DNA of 64,000 nt from Candidatus Enterousia sp. (GCA_045616625.1 JAZLHA010000013.1:4201-68200), one strand, 5' to 3'; numbered from the stretch's first letter, positions 18,495 through 38,800 are shown. Numbers and translations are program-made. Notes: generated from the sequence alone by a model not told the origin.

Positions 18495-18510
18495 TTTTAT
18501 TTTCCTTTTT

Positions 18511-19239: not shown

Positions 19240-19373
19240 AACAATCCCCTTTTTTGTATCATAGACATAATACACCATTGGTAAAACAATTCAAGATTAA
19301 ATAATATTTAATGCTTGACAAATAGTGTTTTGTCAATATATAATATGTGTTATAAAAAACAAAGGAGTTAAAA

Positions 19374-19637: not shown

Positions 19638-19653
19638 AGTATAGGAGATTAAA

Positions 19654-19911: not shown

Positions 19912-20001
19912 TTGATAATGCCGCTTTCAAAAGCGGCTTTTAATTTTTTGTTGAAAAATTTTTTTCTTTAATAATACAATAGGCAAAAATAAAGGAAAGT
20001 T

Positions 20002-20796: not shown

Positions 20797-20866
20797 TATA
20801 TAATACGCAACGCACAACCACAAAACCGCAGGTTTGAAAAGACCGGCGGAAATGAAAAAAAGTTTA

Positions 20867-20956
20867 GGATGGGTGGCAGAGCGGTCGAATGCGACGGTCT
20901 TGAAAACCGCTGAGGTGGCAACGCCTCCGGGGGTTCGAATCCCTCCCCATCCGCCA
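20867..20956 (+). tRNA. tRNA-Ser (anticodon UGA)
   Basis: Acceptor ggatggg/cccatcc, anticodon loop ctTGAaa, long variable arm, T-arm with ggttcgaatcc, encoded CCA. Confidence 0.9.
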
Positions 20957-21173: not shown

Positions 21174-22001
21174 ATGTCGTTGGATTTAACAATGGATGTG
21201 CCAATTACAGATATAGCACTATTAATAGATTTATTACGACCAAGTCAGTGGGAAACTATACTTGCAGCAACAATCCCCGCATATTTTTCTATGTTCGGCA
21301 CCTTTTATTTATATCGTCGAGAAAGGAAAGATAAACTTAAAGATGCCAAACAAACAAAAGATGATGAACAAATACAAGATTTAAATATATTATTAGCAAA
21401 TTTGTTTCAATGTATAGAAAATCAAAAAGATAATCTCAATGAAATTATTGAATATAAAAAGGAAACGGAACAAACATTTAAAGAAAGACAGATTTTTGCT
21501 TTTAAAGATGATGTCAATATTGAAGATGTATTAAGAATTGCTAATAAAATAATTGTTGATCTGCCTGAAGTGAGTTATGATTTAAATAGATTAAAAAATG
21601 ATTTATATTGGGCAAAAAGATACAGGGATTCAAGAGATGAATATTCACATAAATACGGCTATGATTTTTTTAAGGAACGATTAGATAGAGAAGAAGAACA
21701 AGAAATTATGATTATAAAGCGACTTATAGCAATATGCTTGGTATTGTATGACTATGCAACATCGTTATACCCCAAAAAACGAATATTAAAGATCACAGCT
21801 AAAGCCCATGTATCAACTATTTGGAAGTATTTAATCATTGATAAAACCTTTAATGAGACAGTGGTTTTTTCTAGATTACAATACGAATTTAAGAATCCAG
21901 CTATAAAAGATTGGTTTTTTATCAGGTTAAAAAATCAATATATAATGGATACAAAAGATAAGGAACATATTGAGGAAATAAAACAAACTTTGAAGAATTA
22001 A
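21174..22001 (+). CDS. Hypothetical protein with an N-terminal TM segment
   Basis: 275 aa, RBS AAAAGGAAA, no recognisable motif. Confidence 0.5.
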   Translation: MSLDLTMDVPITDIALLIDLLRPSQWETILAATIPAYFSMFGTFYLYRRERKDKLKDAKQTKDDEQIQDLNILLANLFQCIENQKDNLNEIIEYKKETEQTFKERQIFAFKDDVNIEDVLRIANKIIVDLPEVSYDLNRLKNDLYWAKRYRDSRDEYSHKYGYDFFKERLDREEEQEIMIIKRLIAICLVLYDYATSLYPKKRILKITAKAHVSTIWKYLIIDKTFNETVVFSRLQYEFKNPAIKDWFFIRLKNQYIMDTKDKEHIEEIKQTLKN

Positions 22002-25134: not shown

Positions 25135-25659
25135 ACTTTTGTTCATAATTATTGTGTTTTTATAGGGAACAAATATATTTGTTATACGATGGGAAGAATT
25201 AAAATCTTCCCTTATATCGTTCCCTATCAAATACGCAGACTTGTAATTATATTTATCTAATAACCGATTTATGTAATCGGGATCGCTTTTGTTACCATTT
25301 TCTTTAGATAATATTTCCAGTATATTCAAATCTAAATTTGATTTTACAAAATCTATGTCCCTGAGCAAACGTTCCCTGCTAGAATTTGAAACTATTATTA
25401 TTCCTGCGTTATTACTTAATAATTTAACAAGATTCACTATTTCATAACGAACTTCTAGAAAATATGTGTATTGATTTTTTATTTCTTCATAATCTATACC
25501 GTACCTATGACATATTATTTTTCGATTCACTTTGTGATATACGTCTGTAATTACCTGATTCATATCAGGAATACTATAAGTTTCAAAAGCCTTGATCCAT
25601 GCTTTGTTAGCATCTACCAAGGTGCCATGAAAATCACAAAGAACGCCCATTTCTTGCAT
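25129..25659 (-). CDS. HAD-superfamily hydrolase-like protein with an atypical motif I (D-F-H-G-T)
   Basis: The N-terminus MGVLCDFHGTLVD corresponds to HAD motif I DxDGT with His at the second Asp position. It overlaps the upstream gene. The start may be M4 (25650). Confidence 0.6.
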   Translation of the reverse strand: MQEMGVLCDFHGTLVDANKAWIKAFETYSIPDMNQVITDVYHKVNRKIICHRYGIDYEEIKNQYTYFLEVRYEIVNLVKLLSNNAGIIIVSNSSRERLLRDIDFVKSNLDLNILEILSKENGNKSDPDYINRLLDKYNYKSAYLIGNDIREDFNSSHRITNIFVPYKNTIIMNKSL

Positions 25660-26719
25660 TGAAAATACCTTCAGTATAAGATTTTAATGTTTCAGGAACT
25701 ATAATTCTTAATTTTATTGTTTGAGTAAGAAATGCTTTTAATTCTTGGGAAATTGGTTTATTTATGTATAAAGCACCATCTGTAAAATTCGCGCAATCCA
25801 ATAAATCGAACTTTTTTAATATTTCACGTTCTTTGTATGTATATTGCGGTTGATACGATTTGCATGTTGGCCCATTTGGACATTGGACAGAACAAGAATA
25901 ATTTCTTTTTACAAAATTTAAATTCGCATCAAAATTATGCAACAAATGACTTATAGAACAACTTGTCTTTGTAAACAACTTATACTCAGGACATAATTTG
26001 TTCCGTGATTGTATAATTTGACTATAAATATCTTCAGGTAAAAATTTATGATTAATATCACCATTCCAATCATAAAAATCTGCCCCCCGACTTTCTAGAT
26101 GTTGTTTTATAACAGGTGTTAAACGTATGCCAGATATAACAGAGCAATCAAATACACCGTTTACATTTTCTAATATGTTATTAATAGTGTCAGAACTGCT
26201 ATTTATATTTCTAACAATAGGACGCCAATAATGTACATGTCTGGCATCAGAACACTGTCTTAATATTTTGATATTGTTTATAATATTAGATAAGTTTGTT
26301 GGGGTTGATGTTGGTTCTATAGAAGATGGCATGCCAGAATACGTTGTAAACACAAAAACATTATTATCAGTCAAAGATTCTGTATATCTTAGGGGTATCG
26401 GAAGTTTTGTTATCAATACTTTTGGATTTTTTATTCCATAATTCTTAAGTTTATCCAAAATATCAAAAGTGTATTTTTCAACCTTTGGTTGAAAACCTTC
26501 TGTTTTATTGTTCACCATCAAAATAACATCGTCATTAAAAAATTCATGTTTCATTAAGTTATTTATCAAGGTGTCAGTATCTATGAGTTGTTGGGTTTTG
26601 GCCATATCATCATAAAAACCAGTAACAACACAATAAGAACACTTTATTGGACAGCCAATATGAGTCTGCAACGATAAGCCTGTTTTTAAAAATTCTATCG
26701 TTTTGATTTCATCGTTCAT
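25634..26719 (-). CDS. Radical SAM enzyme with an extra C-terminal Cys cluster
   Basis: It has the CxxxCxxC motif in HIGCPIKCSYCVV, and a second cluster, CSVQCPNGPTC, near the C-terminus. It is translationally coupled on both sides. Confidence 0.7.
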   Translation of the reverse strand: MNDEIKTIEFLKTGLSLQTHIGCPIKCSYCVVTGFYDDMAKTQQLIDTDTLINNLMKHEFFNDDVILMVNNKTEGFQPKVEKYTFDILDKLKNYGIKNPKVLITKLPIPLRYTESLTDNNVFVFTTYSGMPSSIEPTSTPTNLSNIINNIKILRQCSDARHVHYWRPIVRNINSSSDTINNILENVNGVFDCSVISGIRLTPVIKQHLESRGADFYDWNGDINHKFLPEDIYSQIIQSRNKLCPEYKLFTKTSCSISHLLHNFDANLNFVKRNYSCSVQCPNGPTCKSYQPQYTYKEREILKKFDLLDCANFTDGALYINKPISQELKAFLTQTIKLRIIVPETLKSYTEGIFNARNGRSL

Positions 26720-27779
26720 TTGATAATTTTCCCCTCATGACTAAATCATTGACGGTAACCCCGAATAATCCAGCTATGGTTCTGTCCAATCCTATTGCAA
26801 CACCGACAGTTGAAGGAATGCCAGCTTTAGCTTTTAATAAAAAGTCTTTATCCCATCTTTGTTGGGTTTTATCTTGGTTTCTGAAAATTTTCACCAGTTT
26901 ATCATAATTATTTTCACAAACATATATATGAGCTATTCCTTTACCATTATATACTACCTCTGCATCAAGTCCTAAGTTAGTTTCTGGGTCTATTTTAGCC
27001 AATGGACTTGCAATAGCTGGTTGGTAAACAGAAACAAAGGTTCCTGATGGCTTGATTTTATCTTTATAGAAACCAACTTGTTCTGAATCAGACATACTAG
27101 TAAGATCTTTACCAAATTCAGAAAAAGATTGCTGTAATGTCTTAACGGGCAGATTATCAAAATCATTTTTTCCAATTGAATGTGCAAAATCTTGCAAAAT
27201 TGTTTGCGCAAAATGTATACCATATTGTAAATCTTGACATGGTATATGAGATTCTAACATCGTATATTCTGTAGCATATTTATAAGAAATCCCCATATTT
27301 CTGAAAACATTTCCTATCTCATAAACAGGTACCATCAAATCGGCCAATACGGAACGCAGCAATAAATCGTGCGTAAATTTTAAATATAATGTTTTGCCTT
27401 TTTTATTCTGTGTTTCATAAGGATCTATATTTGAAGTGCCTTTATATCTTCCCAGTGTAGGGGTACGAACTTTTACTGCGCCTATTTTAGAGAAATGTTC
27501 ATCTGCAATTTGTTCAAATTTACTTTTATATAATGATATTTGTATCATATCTGGGTTAACAGCTTCGGGCGCATTGCATCTTTCTAACACATCCATGTTT
27601 ACAAAATGTGGCAATATTTCATTTGGATCATTTTCTATATCAAATTTAACAATATCACTGGTATGGGGTCTTGGTTCTAAACTTTTATCTATTTGACCAC
27701 ACACAACCTCATTGGCATTGCCAACTTTGATAAAAATAAATGTTTTCATTTTTTTTGTTTCTAAAACACGGCCAATCAT
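26709..27779 (-). CDS. Class II (LysRS/EpmA-like) aminoacyl-tRNA synthetase paralog
   Basis: Motif 1 is VKVRTPTL. Motif 2 is VYEIGNVFRNMGISYKYATEYTMLESH (compare FRNEG..HNPEFTMLE). Motif 3 is GVAIGLDRTIAGLFG. At 356 aa, with only a short OB-like N-terminus, it is too short for a canonical LysRS. Confidence 0.7.
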   Translation of the reverse strand: MIGRVLETKKMKTFIFIKVGNANEVVCGQIDKSLEPRPHTSDIVKFDIENDPNEILPHFVNMDVLERCNAPEAVNPDMIQISLYKSKFEQIADEHFSKIGAVKVRTPTLGRYKGTSNIDPYETQNKKGKTLYLKFTHDLLLRSVLADLMVPVYEIGNVFRNMGISYKYATEYTMLESHIPCQDLQYGIHFAQTILQDFAHSIGKNDFDNLPVKTLQQSFSEFGKDLTSMSDSEQVGFYKDKIKPSGTFVSVYQPAIASPLAKIDPETNLGLDAEVVYNGKGIAHIYVCENNYDKLVKIFRNQDKTQQRWDKDFLLKAKAGIPSTVGVAIGLDRTIAGLFGVTVNDLVMRGKLSNER

Positions 27780-27780
27780 T

Positions 27781-28986
27781 TTATTTGCTCCTTGTATACC
27801 TGGTATCTTTCAATAATACTTTCAAATAGTCTTCTTTGGACATGTTTGCCACTGGGTGGAAAAAGAAAGAATCTTTTTCAAACGGTTTAAGTTGCGCAAT
27901 ATCATTAAACGTTTTTACGTTATGAAGAGGCAAGTATTCTTTCCAACGACACGGGATATTATTGTTTTTTATGAAAGACAAACAGTAATCAACATCTTCT
28001 TTTGTTTGACCAGGCAGACCCAAAATAAAGAAACCGCGAGGTTGAATATTATTGCGTTTCAACATATCAAACACTTGAATAATCTTTTGTTCTTGGATGA
28101 CTTTGTGAACATTTTTTTGAACATTTGGTGATAACGATTCTATGCCAAGACCAATTTGGTAACAACCTGCCGAAGACATAGCCACACACAATTCTTCATC
28201 TAAACAGTCTACACGAGTAACAGTACGCCACTTGGGTATATTGGGTACATTTGCTGTCCTGATAGCATCGCATAAATTTAACACCCATTTTTTATCTATA
28301 GTAAAAGTGGTAGCATCTAAAAAATACCTATCATAAATATTTGTTTCAAAAAACTTAACAATCTCTGGTATTGGACGATACTCTACAAAACTTGCCGGAT
28401 GAAATATTTTTTCCATGCAAAAGGCACAGTTCGCTTTGCATCCCATTTGTACACTCAATTCCACTTCATTGTTTGAAATCTTTAAATATTCTTGTACAGG
28501 CATTTGATTTAATGGTGCAATACCCCATTCGATATTAGATGGTTTTTGCTTTGTTTTTATGATGTTGCCATCAATTGAAAAATCCGAAAAATCGCCCTGT
28601 AATATAGCTTTTATTGCGTTTCCCCTAAAACCAGATGCAACAACATAATCAAAATAATTGGTAAATAATCCAGGATTTAAAGCGCAAGCCGTACTATACC
28701 CAATAATCTTTGCTTTTGTTTGATTCCTTACGTATTCTACCAAATTTACAATTGACCTAGCAGTGTATACTTCAACCGGTATAAACACAAAATCTCTATC
28801 TGATAACCTGGATACGAATTCTTGCCTGGATATATTCTGCAAGCTTAGGTCTATAATATCAACATCAGAGTATTTTTTGGCGACCCCAGCCATCTCACCC
28901 AAGTATACATAGTGCTTAAATAAACTTGGTGGCGCGAACATTTCTCTGGGCCACAAAAAAAGACTTTTAGGTTTAGTTTCTTTCAT
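27781..28986 (-). CDS. Radical SAM enzyme with an N-terminal B12-binding-like domain (class B type)
   Basis: 401 aa with the CxxxCxxC motif in MGCKANCAFCMEK at about residue 190. The N-terminal ~150-aa Rossmann-like region follows the layout of B12-binding rSAM enzymes. Confidence 0.65.
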   Translation of the reverse strand: MKETKPKSLFLWPREMFAPPSLFKHYVYLGEMAGVAKKYSDVDIIDLSLQNISRQEFVSRLSDRDFVFIPVEVYTARSIVNLVEYVRNQTKAKIIGYSTACALNPGLFTNYFDYVVASGFRGNAIKAILQGDFSDFSIDGNIIKTKQKPSNIEWGIAPLNQMPVQEYLKISNNEVELSVQMGCKANCAFCMEKIFHPASFVEYRPIPEIVKFFETNIYDRYFLDATTFTIDKKWVLNLCDAIRTANVPNIPKWRTVTRVDCLDEELCVAMSSAGCYQIGLGIESLSPNVQKNVHKVIQEQKIIQVFDMLKRNNIQPRGFFILGLPGQTKEDVDYCLSFIKNNNIPCRWKEYLPLHNVKTFNDIAQLKPFEKDSFFFHPVANMSKEDYLKVLLKDTRYTRSK

Positions 28987-29428: not shown

Positions 29429-30361
29429 TTGATAGCAATACCTGCAAGATTGCCAGATTATACAGAATGCCACCCTGTGTTGAAATGGGCCGGTGGCAAA
29501 GGGCAATTACTGAGCCAAATTGAGCAAAAATTACCCCTAAAATTAAAAATGGGCGGTATCAAGCGTTATATTGAACCTTTTGTTGGTGGTGGGGCAGTGT
29601 TTTTCGATATTTACAATAAATATGTTATTCATGAAGCCTTCTTGTTTGATATTAACCCTGAACTAGTAATTTTGTACAATGTTATCAAACATGATGTAGA
29701 AGATTTGATCGTTGAGCTGACTAAAATTCAAACAGAATATAAACATACAGATGATACCAAAGCGTATTATTACGCTAGACGTGACGAATATAATAGCTTT
29801 GATAAAAATATAGATGCTAATGTTTATAGTCATAGTTTCGTCCGTCGTGCTGCTTTAACTGTATTCCTAAACAGAACATGTTTTAATGGTTTGTTCCGTG
29901 TAAATAGCAAAAATGAATTCAATGTCCCAATGGGCAAATATACGAATCCGCGTATATTGGATGAAGAAAACTTGCGTAACGTATCCGAAGCATTACAGAT
30001 TACGACAATTATACAAGCTGATTTTGGTGCCACACCAGATTATGTAAAAGCGGATACTTTTATTTACTATGACCCACCATATCGTCCAATTCGCGAAACC
30101 TCTTCATTTAATTCGTACGCTGTTGGTGATTTTGATGACGATGAACAAGAACGGATAAAAGCTGTTTTTGATAAGTGTCATCAGATGGGTGCATTGCAAA
30201 TGTTGAGCAATTCAGATCCGACCAATTATATTGATGATCCTTTCTTTGACGATTTATATAAAGATTATAAAATTAACCGTATTTTGGCTAAACGTCTTAT
30301 AAATTCCAAGGCTGATGGTCGTGATGCAATTCGTGAATTATTGATTACAAATTATGACTAA
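29429..30361 (+). CDS. Dam-family (D12 class, alpha-group) N6-adenine DNA methyltransferase
   Basis: Motifs: LKWAGGKGQLL, EPFVGGGAVFF, YYDPPY. It has a TTG start with AAGGAAAGGA upstream. Confidence 0.8.
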   Translation: MIAIPARLPDYTECHPVLKWAGGKGQLLSQIEQKLPLKLKMGGIKRYIEPFVGGGAVFFDIYNKYVIHEAFLFDINPELVILYNVIKHDVEDLIVELTKIQTEYKHTDDTKAYYYARRDEYNSFDKNIDANVYSHSFVRRAALTVFLNRTCFNGLFRVNSKNEFNVPMGKYTNPRILDEENLRNVSEALQITTIIQADFGATPDYVKADTFIYYDPPYRPIRETSSFNSYAVGDFDDDEQERIKAVFDKCHQMGALQMLSNSDPTNYIDDPFFDDLYKDYKINRILAKRLINSKADGRDAIRELLITNYD

Positions 30362-31139
30362 AAAACAGTATCGTCTTTATTGTGCAGATTGTCTTGAAAA
30401 ACTAGCCGAGATTCCTGAGAATACTTTTGATATGATTTTTGCTGACCCGCCATATATGCTTTCTAATGGTGGTATCACATGCCAAAATGGTTGCGTTGTA
30501 TCTGTGAACAAAGGCGATTGGGATAAATCACATGGACTTAGTGATGATTTTGAATTTCATAAAAAATGGCTCTGTGCATGCCATCGTGTTTTGAAACCGA
30601 ACGGAACACTCTGGGTCAGTGGAACTTATCACAGTATTTATTCGTGTGGTTTTGCTATGCAGTTATTGGGTTTTCATATATTAAACGACATAACATGGTT
30701 TAAACCTAATGCCAGTCCAAATATGTCTTGCCGATACTTTACCGCAAGCCACGAGACACTGATATGGGCACGCAAAAACAAAAAGGCAAAACATACATTT
30801 AATTACGAAGCCATGAAAAATGGTGATTTCCCAAAAGATTTTATTAAGAAAGCCGGATGCCAGATGCGTAGTGTTTGGGCTATTGGCACACCAACAAAAT
30901 CAGAAAAGAAGTTTGGAAAACACCCAACACAAAAACCAGTAGAGTTGTTGGAACGTATAATTCTGGCATCAACGAATCCAGGCGATTTGATTTTGGACCC
31001 ATTTATGGGCAGTGGCACGACAGGTGTCGCCGCATTAAAGCATGGTCGTCTATTTGTGGGTATAGACCAAGAGCCACAATTTGTTGACCTGGCGGAAAAA
31101 AGACTCTATGATGTATCTGAGAAAAAGGACAAAAAATGA
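30354..31139 (+). CDS. Second DNA methyltransferase (beta-group N6A/N4C, DpnA-like position)
   Basis: Motifs: FADPPY, then HPTQKPVELLERII and LDPFMGSGTTGVAA. It overlaps the upstream gene. Confidence 0.8.
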   Translation: MTKKQYRLYCADCLEKLAEIPENTFDMIFADPPYMLSNGGITCQNGCVVSVNKGDWDKSHGLSDDFEFHKKWLCACHRVLKPNGTLWVSGTYHSIYSCGFAMQLLGFHILNDITWFKPNASPNMSCRYFTASHETLIWARKNKKAKHTFNYEAMKNGDFPKDFIKKAGCQMRSVWAIGTPTKSEKKFGKHPTQKPVELLERIILASTNPGDLILDPFMGSGTTGVAALKHGRLFVGIDQEPQFVDLAEKRLYDVSEKKDKK

Positions 31140-31678
31140 AAGCGAACGGAATTGGCGGAGCAAATACCAAAACAGGTTTGGTTTTTGAAGGAAAAACAGA
31201 TTTACGAACATTTTTATGTTCACAAACAGGGTATGATTGCGTGGACGATAAACGTGGCTGGGTTTCTGTTTTGTACAAAGGCGAAGAAGTAGCATCTATC
31301 TTTAAGAAAACTGCATTATATAAATTCTTGGAATATCGTGGCATTGACTGGAAATCTATATTATCTAAAAAACTGTTGCCAGATGATTCTATCTATGTTG
31401 TTATAAACAATACGTTTTTTGTTATTGAATGTAAGTTTCAACGTGTTGCGGGTTCTGTAGACGAAAAATTACAAACATGCGATTTTAAGAAAAAGCAATA
31501 TAAAAAATTGTTGGCACAACTGAACATGGAAGTCGAATATATCTACCTGTTAAGTGATTGGTTCAAACAGCCATGCTATCAAGATGTATTAGATTACATC
31601 GTATCTGTCGGTTGTTCGTATTATTTTGAATATATTCCTTTACAAAAATTTGGGTTACCGGTTCCAACTGATAAATAA
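31136..31678 (+). CDS. Putative type II restriction endonuclease (PD-(D/E)xK-like)
   Basis: 180 aa, start overlapping the methylase stop (ATGA). A candidate D...E-x-K core lies in PDDSIYVVINNTFFVIECKF. Its position mirrors the M-M-R order of DpnII/MboI-type systems. Confidence 0.5.
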   Translation: MKANGIGGANTKTGLVFEGKTDLRTFLCSQTGYDCVDDKRGWVSVLYKGEEVASIFKKTALYKFLEYRGIDWKSILSKKLLPDDSIYVVINNTFFVIECKFQRVAGSVDEKLQTCDFKKKQYKKLLAQLNMEVEYIYLLSDWFKQPCYQDVLDYIVSVGCSYYFEYIPLQKFGLPVPTDK

Positions 31679-31689
31679 TTATTAAAAAT

Positions 31690-33132
31690 ATGGCGACTTT
31701 GGATTTAGATCATCATAAAAATTATGAATGGGTAGGCACTTTTTGGATGCCAAATAAACCAGGTAAGGAATTTTCTGGAAAATTGAGTTATTCTCCAGAA
31801 ACAGGGATTCAAATCTCGGTGTTTAATACAGATGTAAAACCACTTGTTAATAAATCTTTACGTATAATACATGGTATAATTCGTCATGGAGAAGAAACCA
31901 TACCGATTACATTATTTGAAGTGTTTTTACAACGTTCTGGAATGAGTATACATCTCGTCTTGTCAGAATTTGTTACAGGATCTGCTAGAGTAATTGTTTT
32001 TGGTGATTTACTAAAAAATTTTATAATAAGTGGCTTATATATAGACTATGATGACAATTTCTATCAATTTTTGTCCACAAATAAAAACATTAGTTCTATG
32101 GTGACATTTACACAAATACCAGTTGTAATAGGTAAAACACAAATTTCGCTTGAAATAGTGAATGCAACAGCTCACACCATTTATTCCGCTGATGATTTTG
32201 ATGATATCATTTGTTCTTTTTCTGCAGAATCTAATAATATTATGAATTCATTTAAAAAGCATATACAACCATTCTTAGATGAAAACAAATATAATTTATT
32301 AAAACGTCTCCACACGAATATCGCTATTCATATAAAGTCAGGTTATAACAAATTCTCTATTTATAGAATGCTTGAACATAAGTTGCGGTTGTTTTTAGAA
32401 TTTTTAGTGGATTGTAAGATAGGTATAAATTTTAGCTGGATTGATGTTGTGAAACACGACAGGAATGACAAAATATATCACAAAGCATATCCCATGCTTT
32501 GCAAGGATTTTGCTTATTCTTCTGTGCATAATCATAAAAAATTATCACATGTTTTTATGCCAATAACCATAAGGGATTTTGTAATAAATAAAGATAATAA
32601 TTTGTTAAATGCATCACTCAACAGATGGTTAAGTGTCTATGACGAACCAGGTTGGCATAATTTGATTACAGGAATTGAAGATATCTTGAACGAACATCGG
32701 TCGGTAATTAGTCAAAAAGATTATGTAATGTTGATTTCTTACATAGAAACTTTACAAAACTTACGAGGAAAACCTAAAAACAATGACATAGATGGTTTTG
32801 TTTCAGAAAATTTATCAACATCATGGAAAACAAAAATAAAACGCATATTAAAATATTCCCAAAAACAAGATAAAAATCTGGGCAACGCTTTGTGCGAAAT
32901 ACGCAACGTAATAGTTCACCCAAAATCGCATAAGAAAAATAACGGTAAATATTATGCAATCGCAAATAATGAATTAGCATTGCAAAATGTTTATGGTATA
33001 TTAGCCGGTGCATTTATAAATGGTTTAATGAATGACATATATTCTATACCTAAGGAAATAATTACTAAACATATCAATATGTTTATTCAAACACATTCTT
33101 CTTATAAATATATAAGATATAAAAAAGCTTAG
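31690..33132 (+). CDS. ApeA-like HEPN-domain protein (candidate abortive-infection effector)
   Basis: 480 aa. The N-terminus WVGTFWMPNKPGKEFSGKLSYSPETGIQISVF resembles the ApeA N-terminal domain. An Rx4H HEPN motif is present in LCEIRNVIVHPKS. It lies 11 nt after the REase gene. Confidence 0.5.
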   Translation: MATLDLDHHKNYEWVGTFWMPNKPGKEFSGKLSYSPETGIQISVFNTDVKPLVNKSLRIIHGIIRHGEETIPITLFEVFLQRSGMSIHLVLSEFVTGSARVIVFGDLLKNFIISGLYIDYDDNFYQFLSTNKNISSMVTFTQIPVVIGKTQISLEIVNATAHTIYSADDFDDIICSFSAESNNIMNSFKKHIQPFLDENKYNLLKRLHTNIAIHIKSGYNKFSIYRMLEHKLRLFLEFLVDCKIGINFSWIDVVKHDRNDKIYHKAYPMLCKDFAYSSVHNHKKLSHVFMPITIRDFVINKDNNLLNASLNRWLSVYDEPGWHNLITGIEDILNEHRSVISQKDYVMLISYIETLQNLRGKPKNNDIDGFVSENLSTSWKTKIKRILKYSQKQDKNLGNALCEIRNVIVHPKSHKKNNGKYYAIANNELALQNVYGILAGAFINGLMNDIYSIPKEIITKHINMFIQTHSSYKYIRYKKA

Positions 33133-33224: not shown

Positions 33225-33791
33225 TTATTTATCCGCTTGTTTCGCTCTTTTAATATTGTTATATGCTTGATAAACCCTAGCGATTCTATAAATATTTATG
33301 ATAGTAGCCAAACATAAAAGTAAAGCATACGCAAAAATTAATGTTGATATACCAGAAAATATCATTATCCCATATGTGGGCATTATGTTTATCACAGTTT
33401 TTCCTATAAGAGCCAAAAACAAAGACAGTAATTGTATTATTATAAAGTGTACAAAAGCTGCATTTGCTTGCATATACAATGTTTCTGTTGTCTGGTTTTT
33501 CCTTCTTTGTGAAATTAATCTTCTGAAATCGTCTTCTCCAAAAGTTGATAGCAATGTATAGGCGGCCAAAGAAAAACCCAATAACGCAGGAATAATCGTT
33601 TTAACATTATCGATCCAGGAACAATTATTTATCCATTCACCACACATAAAAATGGTCAAAAAAATAGAAAAAATAAAATAAAAAGAAGAAAATATCTTAG
33701 AAAATCCACCATATCCATCAGTATAAATATCTTTTAAAATATCAAAAATATTTTCTGTATTTTTTTTATGTATAGATAAAAATTTTTTCAT
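33225..33791 (-). CDS. Four-TM membrane protein
   Basis: 188 aa with four hydrophobic segments. Its start overlaps the stop of the upstream 289-aa gene. Confidence 0.6.
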   Translation of the reverse strand: MKKFLSIHKKNTENIFDILKDIYTDGYGGFSKIFSSFYFIFSIFLTIFMCGEWINNCSWIDNVKTIIPALLGFSLAAYTLLSTFGEDDFRRLISQRRKNQTTETLYMQANAAFVHFIIIQLLSLFLALIGKTVINIMPTYGIMIFSGISTLIFAYALLLCLATIINIYRIARVYQAYNNIKRAKQADK

Positions 33792-34660
33792 CAGTTTGCT
33801 CTAATTTTTCTTAAAAATTCTTTAAGAACATTATCAATGCCCGATTCTGGATCAGAATCAAAAAACTCCATGCAAGGATGTTCTCTTGTGGAATCCGTCA
33901 TTGTTTGACCATTTTTGTTTATTGCCCTAACAGAAACTAAGCCATTTGTACTTGCTATCCGTGCAATAATTTTCGTATCTGCACTTATGGTTAAACCGTT
34001 TTCATTCGCGGCTGTATAGTTAATTTCTTCTGCTTTTGCATTCATATTGTTAAGTCTGTCCATTATCTCTCTTTCTGAATCTGCCAGGTCATCTGGATTT
34101 GGAGGTGTTATTTTTATTTCCAATTTTTTTATAATTGGATTGGCTAATAATACATCTAGTACGTTAGATTCTGGAACCAAAGTCACATCCACTTGGCCAT
34201 AATTTTGGAACAGCACATCATTATTAAGGATGTTACTAAATAAATTTTTTATATTTTTAGGCCCAAAACTTTCTTGTTTTTTATTTTTCATTTCAAAGTA
34301 CAGTTTATGGCTGGCAGTGTCAAATATAAAGTGGCATGTAGTCAAGTTAGGGCGTAAACACTCTGGTATTTTAATTTCGTTTTTTTCATAGCCCTCGGCT
34401 TCATCAAGTTTCTCAAGATTAAGCCAAGGTTTATCTTTGTCTATTGTTGAGAAAATATACAACGCGCCTATTAAAGCATTTTGTATATCGTCTAATGGGA
34501 GCAGCTTGCCGATAATACCGCGTTTTTCTCCATAATATTTTGAATCTAGTCCTCTTTTTCCATTCTGAAAAGCCGCGTTAAATAGATCGCAATACATTTG
34601 TGGCGAATGTGGTTGTGTGGTGATGTTTAAAATCCCAAATATATTTTTTCGTAATTTCAC
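33791..34660 (-). CDS. Hypothetical soluble protein (possibly DUF4747-like), partner of the 4-TM protein
   Basis: 289 aa. The N-terminus FGILNITTQPHSPQMYCDLFNAAF is reminiscent of DUF4747, from memory only. Confidence 0.5.
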   Translation of the reverse strand: MKLRKNIFGILNITTQPHSPQMYCDLFNAAFQNGKRGLDSKYYGEKRGIIGKLLPLDDIQNALIGALYIFSTIDKDKPWLNLEKLDEAEGYEKNEIKIPECLRPNLTTCHFIFDTASHKLYFEMKNKKQESFGPKNIKNLFSNILNNDVLFQNYGQVDVTLVPESNVLDVLLANPIIKKLEIKITPPNPDDLADSEREIMDRLNNMNAKAEEINYTAANENGLTISADTKIIARIASTNGLVSVRAINKNGQTMTDSTREHPCMEFFDSDPESGIDNVLKEFLRKIRAN

Positions 34661-34842: not shown

Positions 34843-36015
34843 TTAAAACTTATTCTTAAATGATTCTAATGCATTTAAGAATGCTTCGCGTTTTGATGTG
34901 ATAATATTTTCATCCAAGAAATAAAACACATCCAGTTTGTCATATGGTTTTGATTTAGAACGTGGAGTATGTTTGATGAATGGTTTTAAGTCAGCGAATA
35001 GCGAATTTGCCATTAATTCGGAATATCCGCGTCGCTTTAATGCGTTCATAATTTTGATTGGTACAAACCAATTATCTTTAAAACTGATGTTTATTAATGG
35101 TGCTATGTTAGGCAAATGGATAATTATACTTTTTTCACCATAATTGATATAAAAACCTAAATTTCTTATAGCATCCATAAAGTTGCTGATTTGTTCTGCG
35201 TCAGTGTTAGGATGTGATTTAATGTAGTTTTTAATAAATTCTTCGTCTGTCTGCAATTTTTTGTTATGTGTATTTACAGGGTTTGACAGTTCTTCTTCTG
35301 TGTTTTCTACTTTGATAGATCCATCTTCAATACTGATAACACCACGTGTAACAACTTTGGTGTGTGCAGTTAAATGCGGAATAACAATTTTTGATGTTCC
35401 AAGTTTATATATTTCTAATTCGCAGAGGGCTATATTGTGGTGCATATCAATCATATTACTGGTGCTTTCTAGTAATTCTTCGACATTTTCACGAATTCCA
35501 TCACCAACAATCATTAATAAAAAGCGAGATTTATGAATGTTCTTTGTTAGGGTATCCACAAATTCTATTTCGTCGGTATTATCTTTGTGACCTGCAGCAA
35601 CAAGTGCATCAAATAAATTAGTTTTTGTTTTGTGATATTCTTTATATGCACGATTTACGTTTTCATAATCCCATGTTTTGATAGCCTTAGCATATTCAAT
35701 GATTTGTCCGACAACTGCACGTCTGGCTTCTGGGTTAGACCAAAGTTTTGTTTCAACTATGACTAAATGTCCATTTGGGGTCACATATAGATTATCAATC
35801 CTGCCGTTTGGTGTCATGATTTCACGACCGATTAAAAACAATGGGGAATAAGTGGGGTCAACATCACCAGTGGGTAAAATTGATGGGTTTTTTGCTAATA
35901 AATCTTGCAGCCATTTTTCTTTTATTGTTTCAGATGATAGTAATACTCGATTTAATTTTTCATATTTGTTGGATTTATCAATTAATACTGGCGTTTTAGC
36001 TGCACGGTTTGACAT
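34843..36015 (-). CDS. PD-(D/E)xK (NucS/DUF91-like) nuclease-family protein
   Basis: The ORF was trimmed to MSNRAAK..., preceded by AAGGGGG. The motif KWLQDLLAKNPSILP...GRIDNLYVTPNGHLVIVETKLW...GQIIEYAKAI is a D...E-x-K nuclease core with the usual flanking pattern. Confidence 0.6.
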   Translation of the reverse strand: MSNRAAKTPVLIDKSNKYEKLNRVLLSSETIKEKWLQDLLAKNPSILPTGDVDPTYSPLFLIGREIMTPNGRIDNLYVTPNGHLVIVETKLWSNPEARRAVVGQIIEYAKAIKTWDYENVNRAYKEYHKTKTNLFDALVAAGHKDNTDEIEFVDTLTKNIHKSRFLLMIVGDGIRENVEELLESTSNMIDMHHNIALCELEIYKLGTSKIVIPHLTAHTKVVTRGVISIEDGSIKVENTEEELSNPVNTHNKKLQTDEEFIKNYIKSHPNTDAEQISNFMDAIRNLGFYINYGEKSIIIHLPNIAPLINISFKDNWFVPIKIMNALKRRGYSELMANSLFADLKPFIKHTPRSKSKPYDKLDVFYFLDENIITSKREAFLNALESFKNKF

Positions 36016-36040
36016 GTTTACCCCCTTGTTGTTGTTAGTC

Positions 36041-36065
36041 AAAAACCACCAAGATAAATTGGTGG
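36041..36065 (-). terminator. Intrinsic-terminator-like hairpin between the structured leader and the RBS of the nuclease gene
   Basis: The minus strand reads CCACC-AAUUUAUCUU-GGUGG followed by UUUUU. The RBS AAGGGGG and the ATG follow within about 25 nt. Confidence 0.55.
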
Positions 36066-36220
36066 CTGGAGGTTAGTTACTATACGAAGAATAGTGTGGC
36101 TTATTTAGCAAATGCCTTATTCACCGACCCTCCAACCATAAGGCTGCAGGGCTATTAACGTCAGCGCTGACGCTTCGTAAGAGGTAACTACACCTCAATA
36201 TCGGAATTCCCGATATCAGT
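36066..36220 (-). ncRNA. Candidate structured RNA / riboswitch-like 5' leader (unclassified)
   Basis: Nested helices were read by eye: 36069-36080/36184-36196 (12 bp, 1 bulge), 36083-36089/36173-36179, 36090-36094/36152-36156, hairpin 36114-36120/36138-36144 (17-nt loop), hairpin 36159-36172 and hairpin 36198-36216. A hand count gives about 74 G+C in 160 nt, in an AT-rich context. Confidence 0.5.
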
Positions 36221-36224
36221 GATT

Positions 36225-36253
36225 ATTTTACAATAAAATGGGTATTTTTTCAA
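36225..36253 (-). promoter_or_regulatory. Sigma-70-like promoter reading into the structured leader
   Basis: On the minus strand: TTGAAA (36253-36248), a 17-nt spacer, then TAAAAT (36230-36225). Confidence 0.5.
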
Positions 36254-36518
36254 GTTTATAAAACAGCGATAAACACAAGTGGAACAATCCCCCATGCTGC
36301 CCTATATTTTATAGTTTTCATAACCAAAAATCAAACATTTATACATAAAAAAGTATGCATATTTAGTTTGTTTTATGGCATATTAATAATTGGAATTAGG
36401 GGGATTTTTATAACAGGTGCGGTATCCCCCATCTATATTATAAAATTCCAACCAAATCCAAATTTTAAATAACGTCCGTAGTGTTGAATAACTTAGTAAA
36501 AAGCTGAAGGAGTAAAAA

Positions 36519-37814
36519 ATGGACATTGAAAACATAAACCCAAAATATATTAAACCGTATGCAAAAAATACCCGCATACATAAAGATAAACACATACAAC
36601 AGATAATAAATTCTATACGTGAATTTAGTTTTACCAATCCGTTGTTGATTGATGAAAATAATATTTTGTTGGCTGGTCATGGGCGACTGCTGGCGGCCAA
36701 TAAATTAGGTATGGAAAGTGTGCCTTGTGTTCGTATAACGCATTTAACTGATGCACAAAAACGGGCATACCGTATTGCAGATAATAAATTGACGATAAAT
36801 GGTGATTGGGATCAAGATTTACTTAGTTTAGAATTTAAAGATTTAGCAGAATTGGGTGTAGATTTTGATTTAGATGTTACAGGATTTGACTTGGCAGATA
36901 TAGATGTGTTGATTCAATCACAGAATGACGAATTATTAGAACATGATAGCGCCGATGATATGCCAGACATCCCTGAGGGTAAAATAGTATCCCGTGATGG
37001 CGACTTGTGGCAGTTAGGGGATCATATTATATTATGTGGTAATGCACTGATAGAAGACAATTTTAAGAAACTTATGGCAGAAAATCGAGCAAGGATGGTT
37101 TTTACTGATCCACCATATAATGTACATATTGATGGACATGTTTGTGGCAGTGGGAATATTCACCATGATGAATTTGCAATGGCATCTGGTGAAATGACCA
37201 GACAAGAGTTCAAAGATTTTTTACGGACTGCATTTACCTTGTTGCGTAATTATTCTGTCGAAGGTTCTTTGCATTATTTATGTATGGATTGGCGACATAT
37301 AATAGAAATTACCACTGCTTGTGACGAAACCTATACAGAGATGAAAAATTTGTGCGTTTGGAATAAGTCATCTGGTGGTATGGGGTCGCTATACCGGTCA
37401 AAGCATGAACTGATATTTATATATAAACATGGCACTGCGCCGCACATTAATAATATTGAATTAGGGGTACATGGACGTAATCGAACAAATGTTTGGGATT
37501 ACCCTGGTGTAAACACTGGTAATCGCGAAGAATTGCTTTTACATCCGACCGTAAAAAACGTTCAAATGGTTGCTGATGCAATAATGGATGTGACTAATCG
37601 TGGTGACATTGTTTTAGATTCATTTTTAGGATCTGGAACAACTTTATTGGCATGTGAAAGGACTGGACGCATATGTCGAGGAATTGAGATTGAACCCAAG
37701 TATATAAACACAACAATTCGCCGTTGGCAAAAAGTCACTGGCAAGGATGCAGTACTTGTGCAATCTGGTAAAACTTTTAATGAAATATACAAATTAAATC
37801 AAGAGGTGGCGTAA
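36519..37814 (+). CDS. ParB-like nuclease domain fused to a DNA methyltransferase (phage/plasmid type)
   Basis: The N-terminus has IKPYAKNTRIHKDKHIQQIINSIREFSFTNPLLID...LAGHGRLLAA (ParB/Srx fold). The MTase motifs are FTDPPYN and HPTVKNVQMVADAI...LDSFLGSGTT. Confidence 0.8.
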   Translation: MDIENINPKYIKPYAKNTRIHKDKHIQQIINSIREFSFTNPLLIDENNILLAGHGRLLAANKLGMESVPCVRITHLTDAQKRAYRIADNKLTINGDWDQDLLSLEFKDLAELGVDFDLDVTGFDLADIDVLIQSQNDELLEHDSADDMPDIPEGKIVSRDGDLWQLGDHIILCGNALIEDNFKKLMAENRARMVFTDPPYNVHIDGHVCGSGNIHHDEFAMASGEMTRQEFKDFLRTAFTLLRNYSVEGSLHYLCMDWRHIIEITTACDETYTEMKNLCVWNKSSGGMGSLYRSKHELIFIYKHGTAPHINNIELGVHGRNRTNVWDYPGVNTGNREELLLHPTVKNVQMVADAIMDVTNRGDIVLDSFLGSGTTLLACERTGRICRGIEIEPKYINTTIRRWQKVTGKDAVLVQSGKTFNEIYKLNQEVA

Positions 37815-38800
37815 TGAATGTGGCAGAGGTTAAAGAATATAAAGTTGGTAAGGGCAATCCCCCAAAAGAATACCAATTTAAACCTGGGCAATCTGGTAAT
37901 CCTGGTGGTAAGCGAAGGAAACCCAAACAACAATCAACATTTATTGATGATTTTATTAAAGAATTAAATACGATAATTGTGACCAAAGATGGTAAAAGAA
38001 TGACCAAGAGTCAGGCTATGGCAAAATCTATGATACATGATGGTATAGGTAAAAACGCTAGTGCACGTAGGGATGTGATAAAAATAGTAACATATAATAA
38101 CGCCCGGAATGCTAATTCCACAAAATTATGGGATCGTTTGCTGGACTCGGGGATTCTTACCGAGGAAAAAGCCATCGAATTTGCTAACCATCGTGGAAAG
38201 TTTCAGCCAAATATGCACATTCTGTCTATTCAGCAGATAGACCGTGTAAGAACACTTGAAGCGATGGATATGTTGGATAACATTGCACACATTTATTCAC
38301 TAGTTGATATACATGAAATGGCTAAAAATATTTTACAGACAGTAATTTGTGAAAAATCTTTTTGGGATTCTATTGAAGAGGTGTGGCAAGTTCGTAATAT
38401 CGGTGCCGATGAAACAGAAGTCGAACGTTCACTGTTCCAAGCAACCCGTGTATATCCATGCCCTACAGAATTGATATGCAATACTGCATTTGAACTTTGT
38501 GCATGGGCTAAATACGAACTGGTTGAATGGTTTATAGAATTAAGGGATTATTGCAGTAGTTTACCAGATTTTAGATATTTAGGCGCAGATAGGGCGAAAT
38601 GGGTTAAGCAGTTGCTTGTGGAAGCCAAATGGGATTCACATGTTAATGAAAAAGCATTATCTGGGTTCCTGGATATGCTACACAAAGATAGTAATGATTT
38701 TAAAAAGGTTACTGCCCCAGAAAAGATTCAAACCCCGCACCTAACCAGATGCAATGTTAATGCGTTGTTTGATTGGTATAAAATTCCAGATACACATTAA
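37814..38800 (+). CDS. Phage-associated hypothetical protein (DUF5681-like N-terminus)
   Basis: GKGNPPKEYQFKPGQSGNPGGKRRKPK is the motif I associate with DUF5681. The start overlaps the methylase stop. Confidence 0.5.
   Translation: MNVAEVKEYKVGKGNPPKEYQFKPGQSGNPGGKRRKPKQQSTFIDDFIKELNTIIVTKDGKRMTKSQAMAKSMIHDGIGKNASARRDVIKIVTYNNARNANSTKLWDRLLDSGILTEEKAIEFANHRGKFQPNMHILSIQQIDRVRTLEAMDMLDNIAHIYSLVDIHEMAKNILQTVICEKSFWDSIEEVWQVRNIGADETEVERSLFQATRVYPCPTELICNTAFELCAWAKYELVEWFIELRDYCSSLPDFRYLGADRAKWVKQLLVEAKWDSHVNEKALSGFLDMLHKDSNDFKKVTAPEKIQTPHLTRCNVNALFDWYKIPDTH

Follow-up and report, generated by a model that had tools for sequence, protein, structure and literature searches.

sRNA-Xcc1 (RF02221) has been listed in Rfam for more than 10 years as a 'trans-acting sRNA' of mobile elements without a mechanism. 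Northern blot and RACE experiments in Xanthomonas campestris 8004 showed that it accumulates as a discrete RNA of 88 nt (PMC2996969), and its carriers include integron cassettes, transposons, plasmids and prophages. Canonical copies are located upstream of symE, a toxin gene (bioRxiv 10.1101/2025.06.18.660453), and upstream of a gene coding for an ORF6N protein (bioRxiv 10.1101/2020.03.17.996009). Two further RNAs, which are encoded in front of the genes they act on, are relevant for the locus described here. The first one is the c4 RNA (RF01695; immI of phages P1 and P7), and C4 controls the antirepressor Ant (PMC8201110). The second one is RCd22/abiF (RF03085) of a Clostridioides difficile prophage, for which a short form dominates and the authors refer to riboswitch-like premature termination; furthermore, RCd22 neutralises AbiF by direct binding (bioRxiv 10.1101/2025.04.15.648962).

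In the window, the 64,000-nucleotide stretch of DNA from Candidatus Enterousia sp. that was analysed here, a G+C-rich leader RNA of ~177 nt (36217-36041, minus strand) is located upstream of a nuclease gene (34843-36015) in a defence island. The initial annotation of this DNA had described a multi-helix leader with promoter, terminator and Shine-Dalgarno (SD) sequence; the description and the strand assignment hold, and the leader is conserved and covaries among 11 leaders. Sequence comparison confirms that the leader is real and that it can be folded into two mutually exclusive predicted structures, one of which forms and the other of which destroys a terminator. We propose, with a probability of roughly 0.6, that the leader acts as a promoter-proximal, cis-acting two-state terminator/antiterminator switch, which is OFF by default and sets the level of transcription into the nuclease gene. 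Across 36000-36200, the G+C content is 0.42-0.47 compared to 0.21-0.34 in the flanks, as expected from the contrast to the AT-rich surroundings noted earlier, and the RNA 36225-36016 has a calculated fold energy of -72.8 kcal/mol, while shuffled sequences average -49.7 kcal/mol (z = -5.2; none of 200 shuffles equal).

The proposed sigma-70-type promoter, TTGAAA (36253-36248) and TAAAAT (36230-36225) separated by 17 nt on the minus strand, matches the consensus at 10 of 12 positions and is indeed the top-scoring promoter-like site between 34700 and 36600. Its -10 element is separated by 7 nt from the leader's first hairpin, P0, and equivalent promoters with a spacer of 17-18 nt are found 6-8 nt before P0 in 11/11 homologous leaders. 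The similarity between homologous loci ends just upstream of the promoter, suggesting that the gene moves together with its promoter and the leader RNA. At the opposite end, the terminator stops 25 nt before the SD/ATG region; the SD sequence AAGGGGG (36027-36021) lies 5 nt before the ATG at 36015, and strong SD sequences are present at the same place in all homologs. The start of transcription, the termination point and the read-through of the leader are predicted from the sequence.

The downstream gene codes for a 390-aa NucS-like PD-(D/E)xK protein, which consists of an N-terminal nuclease domain and a C-terminal domain without assigned function. All 35 homologs compared have retained the residues D74, E88 and K90 of the D...E-x-K motif. 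The best PDB matches obtained with Foldseek for the AlphaFold model (pLDDT 79.6) are NucS (2vld) and EndoMS (5gke), with probabilities of 0.99-1.0 but E-values of only 3e-3 to 1e-2. One homolog is named DUF91 domain-containing protein in UniRef; a Pfam search with the nuclease gave no match, and nothing was found in a PDB sequence search with the profile of the nuclease family. Sequence similarity points to a relationship with PDC-S11, a candidate defence gene in PADLOC: residues 26-138 match model positions 18-119 of 358 (E = 1.6e-13), and a full-length match was not obtained, the C-terminal two thirds of the nuclease being unmatched. Neighbouring genes in the island code for a ParB-methylase and DUF5681 proteins. 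Motif, structural matches and defence neighbours all agree with the earlier assignment of the gene as a PD-(D/E)xK nuclease of a defence island.

Eleven distinct homologous leaders were collected, which are located upstream of four clades of the nuclease family and of one unrelated 171-aa phage gene. In all 11 extended leaders and in five of five canonical sRNA-Xcc1 loci, the RNA is encoded on the same strand directly upstream of the gene, with no promoter in between. The core of the leader is almost invariant between the window and the homologous loci L001-L003, whose proteins share 81-83% amino acid identity. The initial annotation had asked whether the leader always precedes homologs of the nuclease, which is not the case: it is deleted upstream of a motif-intact nuclease gene with 96% identity (L097) and absent upstream of a 73%-identical gene located inside an operon (L008). 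The 171-aa gene, which was found on a phage contig, has the leader, and so does its 82%-identical homolog; searches for homologs of this gene gave two proteins only. The presence of the same RNA before an unrelated gene and its absence before a near-identical nuclease support the view that the leader is modular and cis-regulatory rather than protein-specific. When 95 nuclease loci were searched with a covariance model built from types A/A' (R1), no other types than these two were recovered; types B and C were outside the narrow range of the model and were spotted by eye. Blastn searches of phage and plasmid collections with the leader gave no match, and pattern scans of viral contigs yielded one true match out of 47 for type A and chance matches only for type B. 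A search for a second copy or a trans partner of the leader within the window returned matches at chance level and no candidate partner RNA. Terminators located close upstream of two distant nuclease homologs (L043 and L062) do not belong to this leader RNA.

In the terminator-forming structure, referred to as fold T, a 5' arm consisting of X, P1a, P2a and P4a would pair with the 3' half of the leader (X'', P1b, P2b and P4b), thereby forming a four-way junction with the hairpins P3, P4 and P5. The 5' end of the RNA is formed by P0 (36217-36197), a 9-bp hairpin with a triloop, which had previously been listed with 7 bp. P0 is part of both folds, seven of its nine pairs show compensatory changes among the 11 leaders, and it is probably an RNA element and not a DNA palindrome, since it contains G-U pairs; such pairs occur throughout the leader alignment, which supports an RNA and its strand. 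P0 is followed by X (GAGG, 36196-36193), which can pair either with X' (CCUC, 36184-36181) in a local hairpin or with X'' (36072-36069). X:X'' is found in the MFE structure of every leader and constitutes, together with P1 (P1a, UAGUUAC, 36190-36184; P1b, GUAACUA, 36080-36074), the 12-bp closing helix (36196-36184 with 36080-36069). P2 is a 7-bp helix between P2a (UACGAAG, 36179-36173) and P2b (CUUCGUA, 36089-36083), and seven of the eight P2 pairs are compensatory. Both P1 and P2 are hypervariable, with 58% identity among close relatives compared to 84-93% for most other parts and 67% for the terminator stem. According to the leader alignment, the enclosed hairpins include P3 (CGUCAG-cg-CUGACG, 36172-36159), which is followed by a U/A-rich tract, and P4, in which P4a (CCCUGCAGCC, 36151-36142) and P4b (GGUUGGAGGG, 36137-36128) flank the loop UUAU. 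In the phage antirepressor leaders inspected (L226-L229), the P3 position is occupied by a terminator-like hairpin with a U run. P5 (36125-36098) contains the A-rich internal loops GAAUAA/AAAUAA. Every helix named in the initial annotation exists; P3 and P4 correspond to its two enclosed hairpins, and P5 is a third one that it had not listed.

The intrinsic terminator consists of AGCCACC (36067-36061), a 10-nt loop, GGUGGUU (36050-36044) and UUU (36043-36041). The terminator recognised earlier is therefore present, at 36067-36041. It is present in 10 of 11 leaders, with a stem that is 100% paired and shows compensatory changes, and it was missed by a simple terminator scanner in the window leader, since its loop comprises 10 nt. 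In the type C clade, the terminator is replaced by an SD-sequestering hairpin, in line with the expression-platform-like behaviour that had been suspected.

Fold T is supported by a hand alignment of the 11 leaders, in which 99.5% of 579 cells are paired and compensatory changes affect 41 of 67 pairs; the hand-built alignments (A9, in which the long P3 loop of type B was masked, and A11) were fitted to the structures, which inflates the percentage of paired cells and affects the compensatory counts and the slid-register controls to a lesser extent. The covariation expected if the helices are functional is thus seen among related leaders, within a sample of 11 distinct, phylogenetically clustered leaders of four types. 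The covariation score is 0.57 compared to 0.18 for shuffles (none of 500 reach 0.57) and at most 0.09 for slid registers. In an independent, model-based alignment of six sequences, 90% of the cells are paired and 17 of 48 pairs are compensatory, and fold T was reproduced by MFE in all 10 leaders folded.

The strand contested between the two folds is P4b, whose alternative partner D (CCUCCAGCC, 36072-36064) overlaps the intrinsic terminator. P4b:D comprises 9 bp, formed by GGUUGGAGG (36137-36129) and CCUCCAGCC (36072-36064); the competing GGAGGG/CCUCC pairing proposed in the initial annotation is thus real, longer than stated and a covarying putative antiterminator. In this alternative structure, fold A, X would pair with X', which leaves P1a in the loop of the local hairpin, and X:X' covaries across types (GAGG/CCUC, GGGA/UCCC, GGGC/GCCC, GGGU/ACCU and CGAGG/CCUCG). 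A second hairpin, PA2, is formed by ACUAU (36095-36091) and AUAGU (36083-36079), so that P2b and P1b (36089-36074) overlap with the PA2 loop, the PA2 3' strand and the junction. In X:X' and P4b:D, 93.6% of the cells are paired and seven of 14 pairs are compensatory, and for the whole 3' structure including PA2, the values are 100% of 257 cells and 17 of 27 pairs in a hand alignment of the 11 leaders with the canonical L226; in both cases, none of 500 shuffles match. Comparative analysis hence shows two mutually exclusive predicted folds, each of which has been kept by compensatory evolution.

The part of the leader that forms the 3' structure of fold A (36137-36064; closing helix, P5, PA2 and a 6-nt junction) resembles sRNA-Xcc1. 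By sequence and predicted structure, the leader is a distant, extended relative of this orphan mobile-element RNA, a kinship for which the evidence is the shared architecture together with relatives whose scores stay below gathering. RF02221 was not matched by the window at the gathering threshold or by 35900-36520 at E <= 10, both of which gave tRNAs and chance matches only; the sister leaders L098 and L106, however, match RF02221 with 37.7 and 36.5 bits (gathering threshold, 53 bits), and a canonical plasmid copy of sRNA-Xcc1 scores 72.6 bits. P4b:D corresponds to the closing helix of the RF02221 consensus structure in Rfam, and the closing-side junctions of 3 and 6 nt are the same as in the RF02221 model. 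The RNA, which the initial annotation could not assign to a riboswitch or ncRNA class, does belong, distantly, to a known one, the 3' half in its alternative fold being the sRNA-Xcc1 structure. Canonical copies were found on the same strand upstream of genes for phage antirepressors (Ant), BRO and KilA-N proteins, and these loci contain covarying upstream complements of the sRNA-Xcc1 junction and the PA2 loop. In four of five canonical loci (L226, L227, L229 and L230), the complements recur at the ribosome-binding site (RBS), between the sRNA-Xcc1 domain and the start codon, while in the fifth (L228) the gene starts too far downstream to judge the RBS copies. In contrast, copies of P1a or P2a of at least 6 nt between D and the start codon were found in none of the 11 leaders of nuclease or 171-aa genes, which instead have a terminator or, in one clade, the SD-sequestering hairpin.

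The two folds compete for AGCC (36067-36064), which is part of the antiterminator in one and of the terminator in the other. In 10/10 terminator-bearing leaders, D extends over the initial 4 nt of the terminator stem, and the base with which this overlap begins changes in concert with each of its two partners, giving A-U in types A/A' and G-C in type B. In fold T, AGCC would be left free, the terminator would be completed and transcription would stop at about 36041, thereby keeping the gene OFF. In fold A, the 3' half would close on itself to form the sRNA-Xcc1 three-way junction, whose closing helix GGUUGGAGG:CCUCCAGCC would engage the 5' strand of the terminator stem; meanwhile, only the local X:X' hairpin would form in the collapsed 5' arm, and RNA polymerase would read through and turn the gene ON. 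The default state is probably OFF, since fold T is thermodynamically favoured, with a stability advantage of 8-18 kcal/mol in nested-structure calculations. Calculations of this kind also gave an energetic cost of 5-23 kcal/mol for adopting fold A in place of fold T, and switching would therefore need an additional factor. To turn the gene ON, the 5' arm would have to be held off the sRNA-Xcc1 domain, or this domain would have to be stabilised. It could also be that P4b:D is an evolutionary remnant of the sRNA-Xcc1 ancestor and not a working state.

We infer that the proposed switch is most likely triggered by contact of the leader with another RNA or with a protein, similar to phage antisense immunity systems, and not by a metabolite. 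P1 and P2 seem to behave as hypervariable address sequences, and their hypervariability fits RNA-RNA specificity better than a ligand pocket. In a more specific version, which we consider speculative and rather unlikely, the P1a/P2a address would be titrated by an sRNA-Xcc1- or c4-type immunity RNA or by another transcript of an incoming or induced phage. Titration of the 5' arm would free the 3' half, which would adopt the sRNA-Xcc1 fold, whereby the terminator would be lost and the nuclease turned ON. If this is true, sRNA-Xcc1-type elements would be a widespread, programmable RNA-RNA switch, which temperate phages use for antirepressors and which hosts or prophages have co-opted for toxic effectors.

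It is unlikely that the leader is a small-molecule riboswitch, in which recognition of a metabolite or a nucleotide signal by the four-way junction or the sRNA-Xcc1 domain would decide between terminator and antiterminator. Its multi-helix junction is complex and its internal loops are A-rich, terminator (or the type C SD sequestor) and antiterminator are mutually exclusive as in an expression platform, and one sensor is combined with two kinds of platform. The RNA is used in a modular way upstream of unrelated genes, and no known riboswitch was matched, so that the ligand class could be new. However, hardly any unpaired positions other than a few A residues are the same in all four types, as judged from a small sample with an uncertain loop alignment, and the junction-closing helices P1 and P2 are hypervariable between near-identical RNAs, which is unusual for an aptamer. 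Moreover, the downstream genes have no metabolic function in common from which a ligand could be derived, and in the canonical relatives both sites pair with sequences over the RBS, which is antisense logic. The idea of a nuclease gated by a small-molecule ligand, which the initial annotation had put forward, is thus not supported.

The strong thermodynamic preference for fold T would also be compatible with a constitutive attenuator, which combines stabilisation of the 5' end with a leaky terminator and holds a toxic gene at a low, fixed level without sensing, and the search for a trigger identified none. A leaky terminator, however, could do without a four-way junction and without a further fold that covaries, and X', PA2 and P4b:D have no role in fold T and yet show compensatory changes across types, which renders this explanation distinctly improbable. 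Similarly, the order promoter, RNA, terminator and toxic gene, known from ToxIN and RCd22-abiF, would suit an abundant terminated RNA that binds and neutralises the nuclease as in type III toxin-antitoxin systems; between the window and L001-L003, conservation is higher for the RNA core than for the protein, and a toxin gene, symE, is preceded by canonical sRNA-Xcc1. An RNA partner of this kind is very improbable all the same: the leader is cleanly missing from the 96%- and 73%-identical nuclease genes, the unrelated 171-aa gene has the same RNA upstream, and its relatives precede Ant, BRO, KilA-N and SymE proteins, which have no common fold. In addition, Tandem Repeats Finder detected no tandem repeats in 35950-36520, and the nuclease is NucS-like with a DNA-nuclease fold and not a known endoribonuclease. 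The suggestion that the RNA is a component that works together with the nuclease is therefore disfavoured. Finally, an independent gene for a trans-acting sRNA that regulates distant mRNAs, located before the nuclease by accident, is equally doubtful: sRNA-Xcc1 does accumulate as a discrete RNA in Xanthomonas and the leader has its own promoter and terminator, but the RNA keeps its strand and position upstream of a gene at every extended and canonical locus, the alternative pairing extends into its terminator, the SD is sequestered by a hairpin in one clade, and promoter, RNA and gene move as one unit.

The proposed switch shares individual features with several known systems. Like the leader, type III toxin-antitoxin systems (ToxIN, CptIN and TenpIN) are found in mobile or defence loci with the order promoter, RNA, terminator and toxic gene; the locus described here, however, has neither tandem repeat units (35950-36520) nor an endoribonuclease toxin, and the co-occurrence of RNA and gene is not obligatory. 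The logic of the competing helices is that of trp-leader-type attenuators, in which P4a:P4b corresponds to 1:2, P4b:D to 2:3 (antiterminator) and the end of D with the 3' half of the terminator to 3:4 (terminator), including a covarying base common to both partners. Unlike these attenuators, the leader has no conserved leader peptide; the short ORFs that follow an SD-like GGAGG are not conserved but vary in frame and length between close relatives, and leader-peptide attenuation was rejected. A further difference to attenuators and riboswitch platforms is that no ligand, tRNA or protein effector has been identified here, and that parts of the sensor lie on either side of the contested strand.

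RCd22/abiF likewise combines a SigA-type promoter, a structured leader of about 100-130 nt and a Rho-independent terminator with a toxic defence gene in a single transcript. Its fold, however, is unrelated, and RF03085 has no match in the window; AbiF is HEPN/Abi_2-like, whereas the window protein is NucS-like, and here a 96%-identical gene does without the leader, which is common to unrelated genes. The c4 RNA resembles the leader in its layout, as it is a small structured RNA in the leader of the operon it controls, with two short recognition sites complementary to sequences up- and downstream. Citron and Schuster reportedly described this in 1990 as the arrangement a1/b1 - a'/b' - a2/b2. 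Canonical sRNA-Xcc1-ant leaders show the c4 arrangement in four of five loci examined, and the RF01695 covariance model found no match in the window and eight related loci. In contrast to c4, the window leader has no downstream a2/b2-like copies, and its predicted output is an intrinsic terminator and not occlusion of the RBS.

The structurally related system is sRNA-Xcc1. In sRNA-Xcc1 and in the 3' half of the leader (36137-36064), a three-way junction is closed by a G-rich/C-rich helix of 8-9 bp and carries two hairpins, one of which has A-rich internal loops, with 6 junction nucleotides before the 3' strand. Both occur on mobile elements and immediately precede, in the same orientation, a gene that is harmful or under tight control, and canonical loci also have upstream complements equivalent to P1a and P2a. 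On the other hand, the P5 internal loops of the window comprise 6/6 nt as opposed to about 8/3, a second P1a/P2a copy over the RBS is missing, and the downstream gene codes for a NucS-like nuclease and not for SymE, Ant, BRO or KilA-N. The unit described in Rfam and the literature is a domain of 87-88 nt, viewed as a trans-acting sRNA without assigned function, whereas here the unit is ~177 nt long and includes a 5' arm and a terminator overlapping the closing helix. If the switch responds to RNA or protein derived from a phage, it would be a new way to silence a toxic defence effector until infection and a compact, re-addressable RNA switch for engineering. Taken together, the comparison shows that a larger leader of about 180-250 nt has two alternative folds; in one, the sRNA-Xcc1 domain of Rfam is formed, and in the other, this domain pairs with a 5' arm. 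The two short hypervariable helices P1 and P2 are the likely specificity determinants. The comparison thereby offers a concrete candidate mechanism for a family that is found upstream of antirepressors, SymE toxins and, in the window, a NucS-like nuclease of a defence island.

The ~177-nt leader RNA (36217-36041, minus strand), which precedes the gene of a NucS-like PD-(D/E)xK nuclease (34843-36015, minus strand), would best be explained as a cis-acting, default-OFF switch, which alternates between a terminator and an antiterminator state (folds T and A) on a domain of the sRNA-Xcc1 type. This reading draws on the sequences of 11 leaders and five canonical sRNA-Xcc1 loci. The promoter TTGAAA-N17-TAAAAT (36253-36225, minus strand) claimed in the initial annotation is the top promoter-like site of the region and matches 10 of 12 consensus positions, and the stretch following it is indeed G+C-rich (0.42-0.47 versus 0.21-0.34 in the flanks). 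The RNA 36225-36016 has a folding energy of -72.8 kcal/mol, while dinucleotide shuffles reach a mean of -49.7 (z = -5.2; 0/200 fold as well). All helices listed in the initial annotation are present in the predicted fold on the minus strand: the hairpin P0 (36217-36197), the 12-bp closing helix, which consists of X:X'' and P1, the helix P2, and the hairpins P3 (36172-36159) and P4 (36151-36128); the hairpin P5 (36125-36098) can be added. The terminator AGCCACC/GGUGGUU with its U run (36067-36041) and the Shine-Dalgarno (SD) sequence AAGGGGG (36027-36021), followed by the ATG at 36015, were likewise found on this strand as described.

The 390-aa product of the nuclease gene has no Pfam match. 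Similarity to the PADLOC candidate PDC-S11 covers the 110 N-terminal residues, D74, E88 and K90 are invariant among 35 homologs, and the best PDB matches of its AlphaFold model (pLDDT 79.6) are NucS and EndoMS. The neighbours in the window fit a defence island beside prophage-type genes. On the plus strand, these are a restriction-modification cluster of two methylases and a PD-(D/E)xK protein (29429-31678), whose overlapping reading frames encode a D12-class Dam-like methylase, an N6_N4 methylase and a small PD-(D/E)XK_11 protein, an ApeA-like protein (ApeA_NTD1/PDC-S58-like; 31690-33132), and a ParB-N/N6_N4 methylase (36519-38800), which a DUF5681 gene follows. Directly downstream of the nuclease gene lies a two-gene module encoding DUF4747 (phrog_10040) and a 188-aa protein (phrog_20580; 33225-34660, minus strand), which appears to have its own promoter. 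Five tRNA genes (7065-20953) and a large serine recombinase (21998-23620) upstream of the island are consistent with an integrated element. The region 25634-28986 encodes one class II aaRS-like and one radical SAM protein and looks like EF-P modification genes (EpmA/EpmB-like). The ParB-N/N6_N4 methylase is found within a few kb of leader modules, adjacent and divergent in the window and downstream in the related loci L098, L099, L106 and L134, and the nuclease often has a DUF2779 (Cas4-like) gene beside it (L008, L098, L106), its place being taken by an unannotated ~489-aa gene in L108. These neighbours may recur because the site is a prophage hot spot that collects accessory genes, or because the genes are functional partners. 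In the unrelated genome of L096, the leader-nuclease module is located between Hachiman (HamA and a DEAD helicase; 1-2159) and a GmrSD gene (3902-5980), which confirms the defence-island context. In L103 (2552-4660), the nuclease homolog P0040, for which no leader was detected, is followed by RVT_1 (reverse transcriptase) and SLATT_5 genes, and the arrangement resembles a retron- or DRT-like defence system.

Homologous leaders were found upstream of four clades of the nuclease family with 41-100% identity to the window protein, for which the contigs of more distant proteins were fetched. They share one architecture and fall into four sequence types: A (window, L001-3, L005), A' (L009, L100), B (L011, L096, L106) and C (L098). 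Every leader has a sigma-70-type promoter with a 17-18-nt spacer, which ends 6-8 nt before P0. Close homologs in Candidatus Enterousia and other alphaproteobacterial MAGs share promoter, RNA and terminator, and sequence similarity among their loci ends just upstream of the promoter; thus, promoter, RNA and gene travel as a single unit. Among these relatives, the RNA core is near-invariant, whereas the proteins are 81-83% identical, and P2 is wholly exchanged (UACGAAG/CUUCGUA to CCAAAUG/CAUUUGG). P1 and P2 of the five type A RNAs are 58% identical, compared with 84-93% for P0, P3, P4/D, P5 and the junctions, and this hypervariability suggests that they act as specificity determinants rather than being structural helices subject to neutral drift.

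The leader does not precede all nuclease homologs. It is absent before P0019 (96% identical to P0018, motif intact), where the SD follows the promoter directly, before P0009 (73% identical; gene within an operon) and before P0032, and was not detected before homologs of 30-40% identity. Two distant homologs (38-40% identity) have, instead of the leader, three ~28-nt tandem direct repeats in front of them (GTGGTCGATTTAGATAACA...; GTACAGAGCAGATTAGATGTCAGAGGGTTG...; L018 ~2330-2420 and L022 ~190-290), which might serve as operators or form a repeat-type RNA. Nor is the leader nuclease-specific: when viral contigs were scanned for the pattern without bias, the single true match was a type A leader in L134 (139 bits with model R1), which heads an unrelated operon for a 171-aa protein, a 143-aa protein and an ADP-ribosylglycohydrolase, adjoining a ParB-methylase and terminase. 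The sole other homolog of the 171-aa protein (L225, 82% identical) also has the leader, with new compensatory P1 and P2 helices. An ADP-ribosylglycohydrolase gene is thus found in the leader-controlled operon of the phage contig (L134:7735-9505, minus strand) and also directly before a leaderless nuclease homolog (L108:1052-3217), which hints at a functional link with the nuclease. The idea that the RNA works together with the nuclease, as partner of the protein or as its antitoxin, is disfavoured by both aspects of this modular distribution, as P0019, P0009 and P0032 dispense with the leader and the unrelated 171-aa gene carries it.

Both folds are supported by covariation. The nested architecture of fold T is the minimum-free-energy structure in each of 10 leaders. 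In a model-based alignment of six type A/A' RNAs, 90% of the cells are paired in fold T and 17 of 48 pairs are compensatory, which was reached by 0/500 shuffles; slid-register controls were low. A hand-curated structural alignment of all 11 distinct RNAs, whose rows were checked against the genomic sequence and which MAFFT left intact, has 99.5% of 579 cells paired, a percentage inflated by fitting the alignment to the structure. Compensatory changes occur in 41 of its 67 pairs, and the covariation score is 0.57, compared with 0.18 for shuffles (0/500) and at most 0.09 for slid registers. In fold A, the 3' strand of P4, P4b (GGUUGGAGG), is complementary to the strand D (CCUCCAGCC), which directly follows P1b and includes the four bases that open the terminator stem. 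The competing pairing suspected near the terminator is real, and it is kept even though its sequence changes between types: GGUUGGAG with CUCCAACC in types A and A', GGUCGGGG with CCCCGRCC in type B and GCGGGG with CCCCGC in type C. The first base of the stretch shared by D and the terminator covaries with both alternative partners, and strand X has a second, local partner, X', which covaries with it. The hairpin PA2, whose strands are the P5-P2b junction and a segment from the end of P2b into the start of P1b, exists in fold A only (ACUAU/AUAGU in the window, GCAAUU/RAUUGU in type A', ARUCA/UGAUU in type B and GGUCAU/GUGAUU in type C). Nested-structure calculations make fold A 5-23 kcal/mol costlier than fold T, so that termination would be the default.

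sRNA-Xcc1 is an 88-nt RNA in Xanthomonas (PMC2996969). In the integron cassette most widespread in this genus, it precedes the toxin gene symE (bioRxiv 10.1101/2025.06.18.660453), and in APSE phages it precedes an ORF6N protein (bioRxiv 10.1101/2020.03.17.996009). The Rfam search of the window gave no match for the leader, in line with the initial annotation, which could not assign it to a class; however, the 3' domains of the sister leaders L098 and L106 distantly match sRNA-Xcc1 (RF02221) with 37.7 and 36.5 bits (local E 2e-5 and 6e-5), below the gathering threshold of 53 bits. P4b:D is precisely the helix that closes the RF02221 model, and P5 and PA2 are the two hairpins inside it. When the 11 leaders are aligned with a bona fide Xcc1 reference (72.6 bits), which precedes a BRO gene of a Pseudomonas plasmid, 100% of 257 cells are paired in the Xcc1 fold and 17 of 27 pairs are compensatory (0/500 shuffles). 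Given these matches and the shared fold, the window RNA is a distant, 5'-extended relative of sRNA-Xcc1 and, by Rfam's own threshold, not a member. While this RNA family was already known, though mechanistically orphan, a NucS-like, PDC-S11-related nuclease is new as its cargo.

The canonical element was found in phages (16 records) and in E. coli (25 genomes), and in the four phages examined an antirepressor or KilA-N gene follows it on the same strand at a distance of 40-270 nt. At all five canonical loci (L226:2390-2620; L227, L229 and L230 ~1670-1940; L228 ~1600-2160), the upstream 65-125 nt hold two complements, ordered as in the window. The first (5-6 nt) is complementary to the Xcc1 junction and corresponds to P1a, the 5' strand of P1, in the loop of an X:X'-like hairpin; the second (6-9 nt) is complementary to the PA2 loop and corresponds to P2a. 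Both covary between the loci. At 4/5 loci, both words are repeated downstream, the first within the loop of a post-domain hairpin and the second over the antirepressor gene's SD. In the nuclease and 171-aa leaders, neither word has a downstream copy, and the output would be the terminator.

That the leader is a purely trans-acting sRNA is disfavoured by its invariable same-strand position, the terminator overlap and the SD-sequestering platform in type C. The cis-acting switch retains the riboswitch-like control put forward initially, as far as the terminator/antiterminator leader is concerned, but a metabolite is less favoured as its trigger than an RNA or protein, given the layout of complements at the canonical loci and the hypervariable P1 and P2; no partner RNA was found within the window. 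We infer from these features in which direction the leader regulates, that it switches in vivo and what kind of trigger it has; they also suggest that the whole sRNA-Xcc1 family may be a two-state leader rather than a free-standing sRNA. We found no mention of a c4/immI-like layout in the accessible Xcc1 literature. The c4 antisense RNA of phage P1 immI, reportedly characterized by Citron & Schuster in 1990, is said to have the layout a1/b1 - a'/b' - a2/b2. The role of C4 and Ant has been described (PMC8201110). It is this a1/b1 - a'/b' - a2/b2 order of the c4 antisense RNA that the word layout of the canonical Xcc1 loci resembles.
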